Shown here in pieces: positions 3,653 to 10,214 of a DNA stretch of 31,822 bases; position 1 is the first letter of the stretch, and the number at the start of each line of letters is the position of its first letter. The notes under the pieces were generated by a model. That model was not told where the DNA came from. It worked only from the letters and a program-made list of their open reading frames with translations, and ran no database searches. The stretch lies in UHGV virus genome UHGV-0094578. One strand, written 5' to 3'. Source of the DNA: a virus. The position numbers and the translations under genes are program-made.

Positions 3653-3886
3653 ATGCATATGACACGTCAGGATTTACCCGCAACAAAATCAGTCACTGAC
3701 CTGCTGGCAATGCTCACCAAAGCCACGCAGGAAGGTAAAGCCGCTGCTGCTGATTTGTGTTCCACCCGTCTGAATAAGCTGGCCACCCATGCAGCCAATG
3801 AAGGTTTAAGCGCAACGGAAATCGTTGAGTTGATCCGCGAAGAAGCCGCGGCGATTTGCAGCAAAGGCGGTGCGGCATGGCAATAA
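3653..3886 (+). CDS. hypothetical early protein (77 aa)
   Basis: ATG 3653 after AAGGAAACC; its stop overlaps the dam start. Confidence 0.5.
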   Translation: MHMTRQDLPATKSVTDLLAMLTKATQEGKAAAADLCSTRLNKLATHAANEGLSATEIVELIREEAAAICSKGGAAWQ

Positions 3887-4737
3887 AAACTCCGCTTAAA
3901 TGGGTGGGCAGCAAAGCCCGCCTTATGCCTAAGCTGCGTCCGCACCTTCCAGAAGGTAAACGCCTGGTTGAACCGTTCGCAGGTTCCTGCGCTGTCATGA
4001 TGAATACGGATTATGACGAGTATCTGATCGCAGATGTGAATCCTGATCTGGTTAATCTTTATAAGGCGATGGCGTATCACACTGATGCGCTGCTGAATGA
4101 GCTGGAGATCCTGTTTACTGCCGGTTCGTTAGGTGATGAAGAAAGCCGTGCCATTTTCTATTACGCAGTGCGTGATGCTTTCAATCTTTCTAGTGGTAAG
4201 GTCGGTTCTGAATCTGTTGAAAATGCTGCGCGTTTCCTGTACCTGAATCGCCACTGCTTCAATGGCCTGTGCCGGTATAATCGCCGAGGCCAGTTCAACG
4301 TCCCGTTCGGTAAGTATAAAAAGCCTTATTTTCCCGCTGATGAAATCCGTGCCTTTGCTGAAAAAGCGAAACGCGCAACGTTCATTACTGCCCACTATTC
4401 AGAAACGCTCGATTTGGTTCGGGACGGGAATGACGTTGTTTACTGTGATCCGCCTTATCTGACTGAAAGCGACAATTTCACCGCTTACCATGAGCGCGGT
4501 TTTTCGCACATCGTCCAGGGGAGGCTGGCGCGTAAATTGCGCCGTCTGGCCAGAAAAGGTGTGCCGGTTGTGGCCTCTAATGCAGATCTGGAAATGGTGC
4601 ATTACCTGTACGCCGGATTTGAAGCCGTTCGCATTAATGCCCCACGTAGTGTTGGTGCCGCAGCTGCAAGCCAGAAAGTTGCCGCAGAGTTAATTCTGAA
4701 GTCGCCGCTTGATTCTATAGCGATGGCCTGCGCATGA
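3877..4737 (+). CDS. dam: DNA adenine methyltransferase (Dam family, N6-adenine)
   Basis: DPPY catalytic motif (VVYCDPPYL) and N-terminal PLKWVGSKARL SAM-binding region. ATG 3877 with AAGGCGG Shine-Dalgarno (track start 3856 is TTG). Confidence 0.9.
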   Translation: MAIKTPLKWVGSKARLMPKLRPHLPEGKRLVEPFAGSCAVMMNTDYDEYLIADVNPDLVNLYKAMAYHTDALLNELEILFTAGSLGDEESRAIFYYAVRDAFNLSSGKVGSESVENAARFLYLNRHCFNGLCRYNRRGQFNVPFGKYKKPYFPADEIRAFAEKAKRATFITAHYSETLDLVRDGNDVVYCDPPYLTESDNFTAYHERGFSHIVQGRLARKLRRLARKGVPVVASNADLEMVHYLYAGFEAVRINAPRSVGAAAASQKVAAELILKSPLDSIAMACA

Positions 4738-6755
4738 CTCCTGTCGCCAATGGCCAACATCACGCCGTCGATACCTGGCGGCGTGAAACGTTCGCACCGG
4801 GTACACCTACAGACGCCACGATCACTGAGCGCCGCCTGTGGGCGGTTAACCCGCAGGATTACGAATGGTGCTCACAGTACCTTCATGAGATACCCGACTG
4901 GTTAGCCGGGTATTTTGGCCGTCGTTACGAAAAGCTGTTTGCTGGTCGTGACGGGCGTTGTCGTGCCAATACATTCCTGCGCCAGACTATCGGCGGGAGT
5001 GTATTGCCACGTCTGCGCAAAGTGGCTGCGCGTTACTCGCTGGCCGCTGACGCTGCTGATCTTACTTTTGGTAAGTCGCTGGAGCGCTTGCCGTCACTAG
5101 ACCGTCCTGATCTTAAAAAACTGGCTGGCCAGGTATCTGGCTGGATTTCCCAGTCACTTTATGACTTCACCGAACAGTTTGACTCCAGCACTGACGACGC
5201 CAGAGAGCTGCATCGCCGCACCTTGGAATCATACCGCCATCTTTGCGCGGGTTGCCTGATGCTGAATAACCAGCCGCCGTACTGGGCTGAACATGAGGCC
5301 AATGAAGGTCAACTGGAAATGCGTAAGGCGGAATCCGGGATACTGCGCATGATGGCGCCGGAATGGTGGTACCTACGTCTTAAACGTGCGCGTGATATGC
5401 AGCGCGAACATATGGCCATCGCGGTGGGACAGGTACAAAAAGCGGCCAGCGCTTATGTATCCCGCAAAACACTGGACGAATGGATAGACCAGAAAAAGCG
5501 GAATCTGGAGTTCTTTAAAAAGTTTGATCTGCTGAATGATGAGGGGCTGCGCATTGCACTGGACAGCATGGTGCACCGCAGCGTTGCAAATCCGGCGATC
5601 CGTCGATGTGAACTAATGGTAAGAATGCGAGGGTTTGAAGATATGGCCAATGAAGAAGGGCTGGCCGGTGAGTTTTACACCATCACCGCGCCATCACGTT
5701 TCCACGCAGTGCACAGCAAAGGTGGCTTTGTATCGCAATGGGATGGATGTACACCGCAGGATACCCAGCGCTATTTATGCGGCGTATGGGCAAAAGCACG
5801 CGCAGCGATCTCGCGTGCGGGTATTCATGTATTTGGGTTTCGGGTTGTTGAGCCACACCATGACGGGACACCGCACTGGCATATGTTGCTTTTTATGCGT
5901 CTGCAGGACGTGGACACGGTACGCGATATTCTTTGCTATCACGCCAGAATTACCGATTCTGAGGAACTGCAATCTGAAAAGGCGCTTAAGGCACGTTTTC
6001 ACGTTGAAGCTATCGATCCCGACAAAGGTTCAGCCACGGGCTACATCGCGAAATACATTTCAAAAAATATTGATGGTTTTGCGTTGGATGGTGAGCAGGA
6101 CGAAGAAACCGGCGAAAACCTGCGTGATATGGCTAAGTCCGTTTCTGCATGGGCTTCACGCTGGCGCATTCGTCAGTTTCAGCAGATTGGTGGTGCGCCG
6201 GTAACCGTCTGGCGTGAGCTGCGTCGGTTGCGGGATCTGGTGCTGACAGATCGCAGAATGGATGCGGTTCTGGCCGCTGCTGATGTTGGCGATTGGGCTG
6301 CATACACCCAAGCACAGGGTGGCGCACTGATTGCCCGCCGTGATCTGGTTGTTCGTCTGGCCTATGAAATTACGGAACAGGGCAACGAGTACGCAGAGGA
6401 CGTGCAGCGCGTACAGGGGGTTTATTCTCCTTTGGTTCCTGATTCGGAAGTTTGCACCCGTCTGGTTAAGTGGCAAAAGGTTGCGAAGTTGGCCGAAGCG
6501 CCAGCGGAGGCGGGGTTTTCTGGCGGCAACGCCGCCCCTTGGAGTTCTGTCAATAACTGTACGGAGGGGGGAATCCTCAGACGGTTAAAACTGGAATTAT
6601 GCAGCCGGGGTTTTAACGGTTCTAATGAAGAAATAGCCATTCTCTTACGGGGTAGTGGTTTGATGTTTGGCCAAGGGGGACTGGTTTACCGTAATGGGTG
6701 GCTTAAAGAGATTCAAAACGAGCCATTAAACGAGTTATGGCCGGGGTGGGTCTAG
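4734..6755 (+). CDS. A: replication initiation endonuclease, rolling-circle type (P2 gpA / 186 A family)
   Basis: 673 aa; HUH motif PHWHMLLF and tyrosine motif YIAKYISK; ATGA overlap with dam. Confidence 0.9.
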   Translation: MTPVANGQHHAVDTWRRETFAPGTPTDATITERRLWAVNPQDYEWCSQYLHEIPDWLAGYFGRRYEKLFAGRDGRCRANTFLRQTIGGSVLPRLRKVAARYSLAADAADLTFGKSLERLPSLDRPDLKKLAGQVSGWISQSLYDFTEQFDSSTDDARELHRRTLESYRHLCAGCLMLNNQPPYWAEHEANEGQLEMRKAESGILRMMAPEWWYLRLKRARDMQREHMAIAVGQVQKAASAYVSRKTLDEWIDQKKRNLEFFKKFDLLNDEGLRIALDSMVHRSVANPAIRRCELMVRMRGFEDMANEEGLAGEFYTITAPSRFHAVHSKGGFVSQWDGCTPQDTQRYLCGVWAKARAAISRAGIHVFGFRVVEPHHDGTPHWHMLLFMRLQDVDTVRDILCYHARITDSEELQSEKALKARFHVEAIDPDKGSATGYIAKYISKNIDGFALDGEQDEETGENLRDMAKSVSAWASRWRIRQFQQIGGAPVTVWRELRRLRDLVLTDRRMDAVLAAADVGDWAAYTQAQGGALIARRDLVVRLAYEITEQGNEYAEDVQRVQGVYSPLVPDSEVCTRLVKWQKVAKLAEAPAEAGFSGGNAAPWSSVNNCTEGGILRRLKLELCSRGFNGSNEEIAILLRGSGLMFGQGGLVYRNGWLKEIQNEPLNELWPGWV

Positions 6756-6769
6756 CAGGGTAAATATGT

Positions 6770-6785
6770 GAAATGCATGCATTTC
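6770..6785. promoter_or_regulatory. perfect 16-bp palindrome GAAATGCATGCATTTC
   Basis: Seen directly, 15 bp downstream of the A stop; no U-tract follows, so more operator-like than terminator-like. Confidence 0.3.
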
Positions 6786-6837
6786 TCAGTAGATGGAAGG
6801 AAATTAAATTTCACTATTCGTGCTTTACGGTGTACGG

Positions 6838-6859
6838 TATACTGGATACTTATCCAGTC
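6838..6859 (+). promoter_or_regulatory. SOS-box-like operator overlapping -10-like hexamers
   Basis: TACTGGATACTTATCCAGTC (6840-6859) fits the LexA consensus TACTGT-N8-ACAGTA at 15 of 20 positions with invariant CTG/CAG and an AT-rich spacer. TATACT at 6838-6843 overlaps it. Lies 22 bp upstream of the 6881 ATG. Confidence 0.4.
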
Positions 6860-6880
6860 ACTATTGCTTGTGGGGGCTAA

Positions 6881-7087
6881 ATGGATCTTTTGGAGGCGTC
6901 GGCACAGCTGGAACGCATTGAGTTATTAGCTAAAATTGCCCATGATTACGAAAGTAACCAGAGAGAAAAAACAATCGCTTTGGCCTGGATTGGAGAACTT
7001 GCGGAAGAGGTTCACAAAATGGTTAGAAAGGAAGGGAAAAGCCCTCATTCTGGGGGCTTTTTAGGCAGCGGGAGTCACTTTCAGTAA
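6881..7087 (+). CDS. small hypothetical protein (68 aa), possibly SOS-regulated (position of 186 tum)
   Basis: ATG 6881 with GGGGG Shine-Dalgarno; sits between A and the cos-proximal region, where 186 carries LexA-controlled tum. No sequence-level identification. Confidence 0.5.
   Translation: MDLLEASAQLERIELLAKIAHDYESNQREKTIALAWIGELAEEVHKMVRKEGKSPHSGGFLGSGSHFQ
7037..7061. terminator. candidate bidirectional terminator hairpin between convergent genes
   Basis: AAAAGCCC / GGGCTTTT stem (7037-7044, 7054-7061) around a 9-nt loop, A-run on one side and T-run on the other, at the 3' ends of the 68-aa ORF and ogr. Confidence 0.4.
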
Positions 7088-7330
7088 ATCTAATGCTACC
7101 TGGCGCTGAGCGGGAGAAAGTGCACTCAGTATTTTTTGCACCACCGCATCACCCGTTTTAGCGCTGGGGCTGAGAGTGTGGGAAAATGTCAGATTCATAA
7201 CAAATGTGTGGCCACATTCAACATCTGAACAGGCGCAGTAAATATCTGCAATTTGCCGATGCTTCCTGTTCGTTTTACGAATAACAGCCTTTGAGCCGCA
7301 TTCCGGGCATTCGATTTTCAGAACTCGCAT
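7061..7330 (-). CDS. ogr: Ogr/Delta-family zinc-finger late gene activator
   Basis: C-x2-C-x22-C-x4-C spacing (CPEC...CSDVEC followed by GHTF), the spacing I recall for P2 Ogr. Start ATG 7330 puts the finger at the N-terminus; an ATG at 7384 would be ATGA-coupled to the portal stop. Confidence 0.8.
   Translation of the reverse strand: MRVLKIECPECGSKAVIRKTNRKHRQIADIYCACSDVECGHTFVMNLTFSHTLSPSAKTGDAVVQKILSALSPAQRQVALDLLKVTPAA
7102..7125. other. candidate cos-like element
   Basis: GGCGCTGAGCGGGAGAAAGTGCAC resembles the P2 cohesive end as I recall it (GGCGAGGCGGGGAAAGCAC) and is followed by a T-run; lies downstream of the portal gene but inside the ogr 3' coding region. Confidence 0.25.
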
Positions 7331-7380
7331 ATTCCATGCTCCAGCTGTTAAATGAAGCATGGATTTTAGCCAGTTTCGCA

Positions 7381-8442
7381 TCATGCCGCACCTTTATCTA
7401 TTGATTCTATGTAACTTAAATCAAAGTTTAGGTGCAACCTTTCCGGTATTTCGGGATCGTTGTTAACGGCCAGCATGAAACGGCGCTGGATGGGGGCAAT
7501 TTCGCTTTTCTTATAAATGCGTTCAGCCTTTTCAACATCCCCCAGTCCGGCAGTGTTCTGCGGGACAATACCGGCGAGGCCGGCAGGGAAACGGTGCGCG
7601 TTCAGAATGTCCTGTGCGCTGATGTTCTTGATGTTGGCAAATTCATCCTTAGCAGAAATATCACCCATTTCAATGAACTTGATGGCGTCGCCGTCTCCGC
7701 CGGGAATGTTGACAAGGATGGTGGAGAAGTTCCCGATCCCTTTGCTGTCACGCAGCTGCTGTTCAATTTCTTCCTCCATTTCGTCCGTCATGCTGGGATC
7801 GCGGGTATAAAGAATTCCGCCTGTGTGCGCACCGTTGTGGTAGTAGCGGCGTCGGAAAATGACCGCTTCACTGTTAAGTAACGCGGAATGCACACCGCCG
7901 ATGTAGTCCGGCAGTCCATAGATATGCTGTTGCGGGTCATACATTTTGATAAAGATAATATCTTCTTCTGGCCATATCTGCGGTTCCCCTTCCTGTAACA
8001 CTACGTAGTCACCGGGCTTATCCAGGGCGTTATCTCTGACTTTGCGGCGGCGTATATACAGACCGGGTAAGGGTTCAAGTGCGATCACGTCTCCCCAGCC
8101 GTTACGAATTTTGGCAATCGCAATATCCCCAAAGGTTATATAGTTATACGCTGCCGCTTCCAGCTGGTCGTGAATAAGTCCGCCACCCAAGTAATCTGAA
8201 ACAATCATGTTTTTGCGGGCGTGAATGATGCCGCCGTGCTGACCGTTAAGATTAATCAGCTGTGCGAGTGCCAGCCGGTCAATCGGCTGGGTGAAGTGAT
8301 CGGCGGCATTGTCGTACCAGATATCACGGTAATCTGTGCCGGTAGTCAGAACCGGTTCAGGTTTGCCGAATGTGATAATGCTCATCTTTTTTGATTTGTC
8401 GCCGCGCTGGTCGCGCTTAACAAAGCGTTTCTTTTTACTCAT
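7381..8442 (-). CDS. portal protein (P2 gpQ-like)
   Basis: 353 aa, AAGGAAAGAGG Shine-Dalgarno; start overlaps the stop of the upstream large terminase gene; P2-type head-gene order. Confidence 0.85.
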   Translation of the reverse strand: MSKKKRFVKRDQRGDKSKKMSIITFGKPEPVLTTGTDYRDIWYDNAADHFTQPIDRLALAQLINLNGQHGGIIHARKNMIVSDYLGGGLIHDQLEAAAYNYITFGDIAIAKIRNGWGDVIALEPLPGLYIRRRKVRDNALDKPGDYVVLQEGEPQIWPEEDIIFIKMYDPQQHIYGLPDYIGGVHSALLNSEAVIFRRRYYHNGAHTGGILYTRDPSMTDEMEEEIEQQLRDSKGIGNFSTILVNIPGGDGDAIKFIEMGDISAKDEFANIKNISAQDILNAHRFPAGLAGIVPQNTAGLGDVEKAERIYKKSEIAPIQRRFMLAVNNDPEIPERLHLNFDLSYIESIDKGAA

Positions 8443-10214
8443 GCAGCCTCTTTCCTTACACCCCAGCGGGATTTAGGTTTGTTTTCATAGTTAAGGGGTT
8501 CGTTATGCAGACCGTGGGCAATCGCCCAGAACGCCTCCGCGTGGCCAGTATCCTGGCTGCGGTCAGCGACAAACGTCATGGCGTTGCCGCTTTGTGTGGT
8601 GGTTCGGCGCACAGACATAAAGCTGGCAGCGATCTCTTTCAGGTTTTTATCCCACTCAATACGCTGGCTTTCCACCACGTCTACCGCTTTCAGTACCAGT
8701 TGATTTTTGGTGTTCAGGTCGTAACGAATAGGGACGGCCACGCGCATGGCAAAATGCTGAATGTTGTCAAAAACACCCTGGCCAATGCCGGTAACGTCCA
8801 CACCCAGATAAGTGAAGTTGTATTTTTTAAACAATTGCTCGATCTGTTTTGCTTGGTACCGGAAGTTCATGCCTTTCCAGTAAATCACCTTCAGAACGCG
8901 GAATTTCTCCACGGCGAGTATCGGCGGCGCGATGATGACAAAACAGGACAAATCACCGCTGCGAGCCGGGTCAAAGCCACCCCATACCGACCTGCCACCA
9001 AATGGCCGCGCTGCATCAGGGTTGTGATCCTGCCAGGTGTCGATTTCAACACCGCAGGCTTCCAGATCGGAAAAGCTGAAAACGGAATCTTTGCTGTCAA
9101 CGAACACGCACATATAGAGCATGTTAAAAGTGGCGTCGTTGTAGCGATTGCGAAGTTTCTCGATGTTCGCCAGGTTGAAACCGCCTGCAATGGCATCTTC
9201 CATCGTAATGACGTAGCGCCATTGCCCATCCGGGCAGAGTCGCCCGCCGTCACGCATTTCGTTAAAGGACGGAAACTTAATGGCCGCACGTTTTTTACTG
9301 CCCTGTTTCCACTCATCGCCCGTCCAGAACGGGTAAGCCTGGTGCGTTTTTGCCGATGGCGTTGAAAAATAGGTGGTGCGCCACTTGTCATGTGTGGCCA
9401 TTGCACTGGCCACTTCGTTAAGTTTTGCAAAGTTTGGCACCCAGAAATATTCGTCACAGTACAGGTGGCCACTGTAGGACTGGGCGGTGTTTTTGTTGGT
9501 GGAGAGAAAACGCAGTTCTGCGCCGTTGCTTAAGCGGATCGGGTTGCCGGTTAGCGTAATACCGAAATACTGCTCTGCAATATTCACGATGTAAGACCGG
9601 AACACTTCAGCCTGTGCCTTTGACGCTGACAGAAAGATTTGCGGATCGCCGGTCATCACCGCATTTTCAAACGCTTCAAACGCAAAATACCAGGTCGCAC
9701 CGATCTGGCGGCTTTTCAGGATGTTCCTGACAAGCTGGCCAATGTTATTGCGCAGGTGTTTCTGATATTCAAAAAGATGTTCCTCAGCCCATGCGTCAAA
9801 GTCCTCCTGCGTCAGCGACGTAATATCGTTTTTCTTGTATTTCCGTTTGCTGCGTGGTTCGTCGTCATTGTTGCCCCGCGCAGCTGCTTGCCCGGAACTC
9901 TGACCGCTGGCCATTTTCTCTTTGTGTTTATTACTCTGCGCACGCAGTTTCGTGGCATGAGCAATGAGCATGTCCATTTCTTTCAGGTCGAGATCGGTTT
10001 TGTTATCGCGGCTGGCCAGCAGCTGGTAACGGCGTTCAATTGCTTCCTCTGTGCTTTCAAAACTGAGCAAATCCGCCCAGCTGTATTTCTCCGCCCAGTA
10101 GTAAATGATCCGCGCATTCGGCAGATTTAATTCAGATGCGATTTCCTTTGGCGTATAGCGGCGCAGATAAAGTGCGCGAACAACGCCTTTTAATTCTTCA
10201 GAGTATTTAGCCAT
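8439..10214 (-). CDS. terminase large (ATPase) subunit (P2 gpP-like)
   Basis: 591 aa, divergent from the scaffold/capsid operon exactly as P and O are in P2. Confidence 0.9.
   Translation of the reverse strand: MAKYSEELKGVVRALYLRRYTPKEIASELNLPNARIIYYWAEKYSWADLLSFESTEEAIERRYQLLASRDNKTDLDLKEMDMLIAHATKLRAQSNKHKEKMASGQSSGQAAARGNNDDEPRSKRKYKKNDITSLTQEDFDAWAEEHLFEYQKHLRNNIGQLVRNILKSRQIGATWYFAFEAFENAVMTGDPQIFLSASKAQAEVFRSYIVNIAEQYFGITLTGNPIRLSNGAELRFLSTNKNTAQSYSGHLYCDEYFWVPNFAKLNEVASAMATHDKWRTTYFSTPSAKTHQAYPFWTGDEWKQGSKKRAAIKFPSFNEMRDGGRLCPDGQWRYVITMEDAIAGGFNLANIEKLRNRYNDATFNMLYMCVFVDSKDSVFSFSDLEACGVEIDTWQDHNPDAARPFGGRSVWGGFDPARSGDLSCFVIIAPPILAVEKFRVLKVIYWKGMNFRYQAKQIEQLFKKYNFTYLGVDVTGIGQGVFDNIQHFAMRVAVPIRYDLNTKNQLVLKAVDVVESQRIEWDKNLKEIAASFMSVRRTTTQSGNAMTFVADRSQDTGHAEAFWAIAHGLHNEPLNYENKPKSRWGVRKEAA

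Follow-up and report, generated by a model that had tools for sequence, protein, structure and literature searches.

Organization of the Locus

The window, that is, the whole stretch of DNA analysed here, comprises 31,822 nt of UHGV-0094578. Judged from gene identities assigned with Pfam and PHROG, it is a 186-like (Peduoviridae) prophage with a 186-type lysogeny switch. On the minus strand, an integrase gene (50-1090) adjoins the gene of a 186-type CI repressor (1092-1715; Pfam Phage_CI_repr and Phage_CI_C), which is the predicted target of the antirepressor discussed below and in which Pfam matches no cleavage (Peptidase_S24) domain. The plus strand carries an Apl/Cox-like gene (1776-2030), a 186-type CII gene (2061-2564), a Dam methylase gene (3856-4737) and the gene of replicase A (4734-6755; Pfam Phage_GPA, E 3e-104). 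The latter is the upstream neighbour of an ORF of 68 codons (6881-7087, plus strand), whose last 27 nt overlap the convergent ogr/delta late activator gene (7061-7384, minus strand; Pfam Ogr_Delta, E 1e-19). The portal (7381-8442) and terminase (8439-10214) genes lie beyond, both on the minus strand.

The 68-codon ORF begins with ATG, and a candidate Shine-Dalgarno element read from the sequence, GGGGG (6872-6876, plus strand), ends 4 nt before it. A G-rich stretch occupies the same place in all relatives. Codons 1-53 (6881-7039) form the conserved core. The gene order around the ORF is repeated in 64 related loci. Moreover, the ORF had been proposed by synteny to occupy the place of tum in phage 186, past gene A and toward the packaging genes, and the annotated 186 record has tum in this same position: there, gene A is followed by the promoter p95, whose -10 element a LexA site covers, and then by tum and orf97.

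Further features of this region deserve a mention. The window's sole ogr/delta-type gene closes the P-Q operon, flanked by the 68-codon gene on one side and the portal gene on the other, unlike in P2, 186, Fels-2 and E. coli HS, where it follows gene D. Its ORF has 107 codons in the window, and gene callers sometimes choose an internal methionine that leaves 89 aa. A 22-bp palindrome with the abutting halves TGTGAAATGCA and TGCATTTCTCA (6767-6788) begins 12 nt past the stop codon of gene A and is partly conserved in close relatives. Just downstream of it, these relatives have a promoter-like pair, TTGTCA-16-TAAATT, whose -35 hexamer overlaps the right arm of the palindrome; the TTGTCA hexamer reads TTCTCA in the window.

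A Match to the LexA Operator

Upstream of the ORF lies a candidate LexA (SOS) operator, TACTGGATACTTATCCAGTC (6840-6859, strand-neutral), which has the CTG-N10-CAG layout and a heterology index within the binding range of E. coli-type LexA boxes. A repeat finder reports the dyad arms ACTGGATA (6841-6848) and TATCCAGT (6851-6858), each of 8 nt, spaced by 2 nt and 100% complementary; the dyad that had been called near-perfect is thus a perfect 8+8 palindrome. The resemblance of its CCAG right half to the uvrB box, noted in the sequence-only reading, is confirmed by the listed uvrB sequence, AACTGTTTTTTTATCCAGTA (PMC12527982 Table S1). The distance between box and ORF, given there as 22 bp, needs a small correction, as 21 nt separate the box from the ATG.

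For scoring, we re-derived the heterology-index (HI) matrix from 140 pairs of sequence and HI value of E. coli K-12 (PMC12527982 Table S1). The resulting matrix is symmetric and fits exactly (rmse 1e-5), and a higher HI denotes a weaker box. Scored with this LexA matrix, as had been suggested as a check, the site at 6840-6859 has an HI of 8.36 and is the best site of the window; 0.0067 sites with an HI of 8.36 or lower are expected by chance in 31.8 kb and one is observed, the runner-up in the whole window having an HI of 14.26. The value is close to those of the E. coli boxes lexA-2 (8.32), uvrD (8.80) and ruvAB (9.19) in the PSOSP supplement (PMC12527982), and experimentally validated boxes up to an HI of at least 9.37 are listed as LexA-binding in Table S3 of the same source. 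A search of the window for the LexA consensus with up to 3 mismatches returns no match because the site at 6840-6859 has 5 mismatches.

The dyad CCCTGTATTGCCGTACAGGT (CCTGTA...TACAGG; 1769-1788; HI 14.26), situated between cI and apl, is likelier to serve as a phage operator than to be bound by LexA.

A Predicted, Rearranged p95-Type Promoter

The promoter region of the 68-codon gene aligns with p95 of phage 186, which is annotated as SOS-dependent and as having its LexA site over the -10 element (annotated 186 record). The hexamer TTCACT (6810-6815, plus strand) aligns with the annotated -35 element of p95, TTCACA, and with TTCACA in relatives, and is therefore our candidate for the -35 element of an SOS promoter equivalent to p95. 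Between this hexamer and the LexA box lies a 7-bp tandem duplication, TACGGTG followed by TACGGTA (6826-6839, plus strand). It appears as a 7-column insertion unique to the window in an alignment with six relatives and 186, and it is restricted to this lineage, being missing from all of the 80 or more relatives; an identical copy occurs in the loci L010 and L173-L176, in which the 133 nt upstream of the gene are identical.

The second copy of the duplication provides a candidate -10 element, TACGGT (6833-6838, plus strand), 17 nt after the -35 hexamer, while TATACT (6838-6843, plus strand), at 22 nt from the -35 hexamer, is an alternative. TTCACT/TACGGT is the best-scoring pair in a crude sigma-70 scan with a matrix of consensus frequencies. 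By this matrix, the pair scores 7.34, compared to 8.64 for the TTCACA-17-TACTGT pair of relatives and 9.44 for p95 of 186, and 7.34 corresponds to about the 90th percentile among 110-nt tiles of the window. A standard sigma-70 promoter scan finds no promoter in this region, and its criteria would equally miss the documented p95 with its -10 element TACTGT.

In relatives, the promoter consists of TTCACA and TACTGT at a spacing of 17 nt, and the left box arm doubles as the -10 element, which agrees with the annotation of p95. A T-to-G change in the window box also abolishes this ancestral -10 element (TACTGT to TACTGG), and the duplication shifts the box 7 bp downstream, which puts the former -10 position at 24 nt from the -35 hexamer. 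Promoter activity would hence depend on the duplicated TACGGT, which matches only 3 of the 6 consensus positions. As a result of the duplication, the box is predicted to lie over the transcription start instead of the -10 hexamer: provided that TTCACT/TACGGT is used, the start would be at about 6845 and the box would span about -5 to +15, still a repressing position.

The Product Is a Homolog of the Antirepressor Half of Tum

The protein, left unrecognised in the sequence-only reading, turns out to be a homolog of the antirepressor half of Tum. In a BLASTP alignment (E 2e-6), its residues 10-41 share 34% identity and 69% positives with 186 Tum residues 11-42, and over 48 aa it is 33% identical to Fels-2 STM2728 and the 62-aa protein of E. 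coli HS (E 3-4e-9). The ORF matches PHROGs 698 (E 1e-21), 8554 (E 7e-13) and 1993 (E 3e-3), and the N-terminal 70 residues of 186 Tum match the same three families. The 62-aa proteins of Fels-2 and E. coli HS fall into PHROG 698. PSP3 TumA matches PHROG 1993 only, and this family is its only connection to the ORF product, BLASTP finding no similarity between the two. Pfam and NCBIfam contain no model that matches the ORF, and neither yields a DinI match. Furthermore, tblastn with the C-terminal part of Tum and with DinI detects no DinI homolog in the window, nor within 4 kb in 87 related loci.

An AlphaFold2 model based on an alignment of 29 sequences places helices at residues 3-21 and 27-53 (pLDDT around 90) and leaves residues 56-68 as a disordered tail. 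The product is thus modelled as a two-helix hairpin. A PDB sequence search and Foldseek searches against BFVD and PDB return generic helical hairpins only, with E above 0.09. The gene is under purifying selection, with a median pN/pS of 0.12 for codons 1-45 in unsaturated pairs. Together with the conserved length of the protein and the confident hairpin model, this speaks for a genuine coding gene.

In a large protein database, the family comprises 63 clusters at 90% identity with lengths of 37-115 aa, mostly 66-68 aa, and an exhaustive profile search gives 77 clusters at the 50% level, nearly all of 45-112 aa. Members stem from Escherichia, Citrobacter, Salmonella, Pluralibacter, Raoultella and Cronobacter and are called 'hypothetical' where they are named. 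M1, D2, L4, E11, R12, E14, A33, L34, I37 and E39 are invariant throughout, 186 Tum included. When the ORF is compared by tblastn with 50,697 phage records, only one unannotated Salmonella phage matches, which suggests that sequenced phages barely sample its subfamily. Of the E. coli RefSeq genomes listed (H8-H27), only about one in two has a PGAP call for the orthologous 68-aa gene, and the remaining ones have an interval between A and ogr without a gene call.

The Predicted Operator Is Conserved Across the Family

We examined the upstream regions of genes for relatives in 87 loci (seven from genomes and 80 viral), 86 of which include upstream sequence. A LexA box with the CTG-N10-CAG layout is present in 84 of the 86, with HI values of 0.5-8.4 (median 2.9), and it ends 15-29 nt (median 22) ahead of the start codon. 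In the 83 loci other than the window, the HI values range from 0.5 to 8.0. The best HI found elsewhere in each related locus of about 8 kb is usually above 17. The 32 distinct boxes agree completely or almost completely at positions 1-6, 8, 14 and 16-19 and differ freely at the central positions. The arms carry about 2 bits of information, the centre 0.1-0.9 bits and the flanks 0.3-1.2 bits. Conserved arms around a variable centre are the pattern predicted by selection for LexA binding and not the one predicted for an RNA hairpin or a phage-specific operator.

Two loci have no intact box. In L015 (3920-4003), unrelated sequence has taken the place of the promoter together with the left box half, and about 10 nt are inserted between the box arms in L083 (3920-4003).

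The box of the window is the weakest, having the highest HI of the 84 family boxes (the box of relatives is TACTGTATGTATATCCAGTT for comparison). It alone has G6 and C20, and C15 occurs in three boxes including that of the window. The changes at positions 6 and 15 are mirror-symmetric and result in CTGG...CCAG, as in the ruvAB box. This variant is not confined to one phage: promoter and gene recur in identical form in at least four other prophage contexts and in 23 contigs, and several of the prophages differ in CI and the accessory genes. In two of these contexts, CI is just 76% identical to that of the window.

A Terminator Within the Coding Sequence

The 3' part of the ORF contains a GC-rich hairpin, AAAAGCCCTCA ttc TGGGGGCTTTTT (7036-7062), preceded by an A-run and followed by T5, which has the features of a bidirectional intrinsic terminator. 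The predicted folding energy is -16.5 kcal/mol on the plus strand and -10.9 kcal/mol on the minus strand. Read on the minus strand, the hairpin comes directly past the ogr stop codon (7061-7063), and on the plus strand it is located inside the 3' end of the ORF, with the U5/T5 tract ending 23 nt ahead of the ORF stop codon. Hence, one hairpin is predicted to end both the single-gene tum-like operon and the convergent P-Q-ogr operon. The hairpin and the A-run are kept in relatives, but a strong T-run on the plus strand is confined to the window and a small number of them; a strict terminator scan of the relatives likewise finds a plus-strand terminator in few of them. Both the terminator and the overlap with ogr seem to have shaped the variable, disordered tail of the protein. 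Given the position of the hairpin, the tum-like transcript could be a non-stop mRNA, and its product could hence be tagged by tmRNA.

The Tum-Like Gene Follows the Phage Backbone Rather Than CI

A mirror-tree test intended to back CI as the target did not do so. In this comparison of pairwise distances, covering 64 loci with full gene sets (L092-L171) plus the window and residues 1-45 as the TumA core, the Mantel r of the core is 0.93 with CII, 0.87 with Ogr, 0.86 with Q and 0.84 with A. It amounts to 0.49 with the C-terminal domain of CI, 0.37 with the N-terminal domain of CI and 0.30 with Apl. Once A, Ogr and Q are regressed out, a partial r of 0.01-0.09 is left for the two CI domains, and CII alone retains a sizeable one (0.51). 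Moreover, TumA cores that are at least 97% identical are paired with CI proteins whose identity falls to 38% in the N-domain and 30% in the C-domain. The 64 loci thus provide no sign of TumA-CI coupling, and co-variation does not support a specific pairing or allele-specific recognition. As the TumA core tracks the backbone and not CI or Apl, the int-cI-apl block appears to be exchanged independently of the SOS module.

CI is nevertheless the probable target of the 68-aa product on the strength of homology, the main weakness of this assignment being the missing co-variation. Since 24 CI positions are invariant across the compared set, the product might recognize a conserved surface of CI. The Gifsy antirepressors, which act on non-cognate repressors (PMC3121763), set a precedent for a TumA-CI relationship that leaves no co-variation.

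A Model for SOS Induction and Its Alternatives

We consider it quite probable that this region serves a 186-like temperate phage as its module for SOS induction, in which LexA controls a TumA-like antirepressor of CI. A compact SOS-inducible antirepressor had already been envisaged in the sequence-only reading, and the score of the box, the promoter that aligns with p95, the tum position, the homology to Tum and the conservation of the box in 84 of 86 loci all favour it. In an undamaged lysogen, host LexA bound at 6840-6859 would cover the predicted start of a weak promoter and keep the gene silent. Upon DNA damage, activated RecA would bring about self-cleavage of LexA, and the 68-codon gene would be transcribed. 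The product, a putative two-helix hairpin, would then bind CI and keep it off its operators, which would allow the lytic promoter to fire. As CI has no matched cleavage domain, an antirepressor would be required for SOS induction. The module would be a single-gene operon, without a fused DinI, tumB or orf97, and would end at a terminator that it has in common with the convergent late operon.

Three other explanations have to be weighed against this model. The changes T6G, A15C and A20C together with the 7-bp duplication might have damaged operator and promoter, so that the gene is unrepressed or untranscribed and belongs to a decaying remnant in a prophage that is non-inducible or leaky. The rank of the box as the weakest of 84, its singular G6 and C20, the lost ancestral -10 element and the disturbed spacing to the -35 hexamer speak for such decay. 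However, an HI of 8.36 is inside the range of validated LexA-binding boxes (up to 9.37, PSOSP Table S3), both arm changes preserve the mirror symmetry of a CTGG...CCAG box as in ruvAB, the duplication restores a TA...T hexamer at the exact spacing of 17 nt from the -35 element, and the ORF is intact. Furthermore, the recurrence of the identical 133-nt upstream region and gene in at least four prophage contexts and 23 contigs argues against a decaying relic or a recent inactivating accident, and we regard decay as unlikely. A product that is induced by SOS and acts on RecA, LexA, cell division or a phage regulator such as CII instead of CI would fit the lack of co-variation with CI, the strong correlation with CII (r 0.93, partial r 0.51) and the fact that neither a fold or sequence match nor the database names, all 'hypothetical', indicate a function. 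Yet the product is homologous to the Tum half to which antirepressor activity has been assigned, the window CI would need an antirepressor for lack of a matched cleavage domain, and the window has no other candidate gene behind a LexA box, while the correlation with CII may reflect shared backbone ancestry; a role apart from CI is accordingly quite improbable in our estimate.

The palindrome itself could also serve another purpose, either as the operator of a phage protein or as an RNA hairpin that acts as terminator or attenuator after gene A. The plus-strand segment 6836-6863 does fold at -8.7 kcal/mol (z -2.7), but a T-run and a compensatory pattern are missing, conservation across the family is limited to the arms contacted by LexA, and an Rfam search matches no family. 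As the site fits the LexA matrix and the orthologous site in 186 is the LexA operator of p95, a function other than LexA binding is very improbable.

Returning to the LexA-controlled antirepressor, its mechanism is an ordinary one with nothing new to it, and the weak box, the duplication, the lack of co-variation with CI and the internal terminator are modest leads. They can be combined into a bolder proposal that we hold to be doubtful, namely that TumA hairpins are generalist antirepressors directed at an invariant feature of 186-family CI proteins and that this lineage has re-tuned its switch by a symmetric weak box, the duplication and the internal terminator. If TumA hairpins are generalists, the int-cI-apl immunity module could be exchanged without changing the SOS module. 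If the switch has been re-tuned, the terminator in the ORF could yield a tmRNA-tagged, short-lived antirepressor.

With the preferred reading, a 'hypothetical' family of about 60-70 aa receives a name and a function that can be tested. PHROGs 698, 8554 and 1993 all bear the label "unknown function", and members of the family occur in many prophages of Escherichia, Salmonella, Citrobacter, Klebsiella relatives and Cronobacter. The reading predicts that the prophage is SOS-inducible via an antirepressor, which bears on predictions of prophage induction. Moreover, the family offers 32 distinct natural LexA boxes, all in a constant position, as a ready series for relating operator strength to induction.

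Comparison With Known Systems

The combination of a non-cleavable repressor with a small antirepressor whose gene follows a LexA box also characterizes the Gifsy GfoA/GftA and N15 AntC systems (PMC3121763). These differ from the window in gene order and repressor families, and our comparison found no sequence relationship to them.

A close counterpart is the p95-tum SOS operon of phage 186 (Lamont, 1989; Brumby, 1996; Shearwin, 1998; as cited in PMC7708051 and PMC3121763). Both loci have the gene past gene A behind an alignable promoter with a TTCACA-type -35 element and a LexA box, the N-terminal roughly 45 residues of the products are homologous, and the CI/Apl/CII switch is of the same type. 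However, the 186 gene encodes a Tum of 146 aa whose fused C-terminal half is DinI-like, contains internal starts and precedes orf97, whereas the window has neither a DinI part nor orf97. By the same matrix, the p95 box has an HI of 1.49 and lies over the -10 element, compared to an HI of 8.36 and a location over the predicted start site in the window. The window module is therefore not 186 Tum proper, as it has no DinI-like C-terminal domain and no adjacent tumB.

Tum has the appearance of an antirepressor fused to DinI (Lemire et al., PMC3121763), and in Fels-2 and PSP3 the two halves are separated by a stop codon (Lemire et al., PMC3121763), with the antirepressor activity of PSP3 residing in the upstream half-gene (PMC3121763). 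In the PSP3 record, the gene of 60 aa is named tumA with the remark 'similar to 5' end 186 tum; UV induction of prophage', and the next gene, tumB, encodes a DinI homolog. A literature search on 'TumA' returns unrelated papers only. Fels-2 and E. coli HS share the split tum arrangement of PSP3, the box of HS being TACTGTAAATATAAACAGTG. In the HS prophage (DuoHS), deletion of tum or a non-cleavable lexA abolishes induction by mitomycin C, the supplements leaving the deleted ORF unspecified (PMC12055606). PSP3, Fels-2 and DuoHS resemble the window in encoding a stand-alone protein that corresponds to the N-terminal half (60-62 aa) behind a LexA box past gene A. They differ in having a separate DinI-family gene immediately downstream, which the window and 87 loci of its subfamily lack within 4 kb, and the window gene is directly followed by the convergent ogr gene instead. 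Taken together, ORF and box are, as far as homology and synteny indicate, a module of the Tum/TumA class in a version with one gene and no DinI part, which is common among 186-like prophages of enterobacteria and unannotated in databases.
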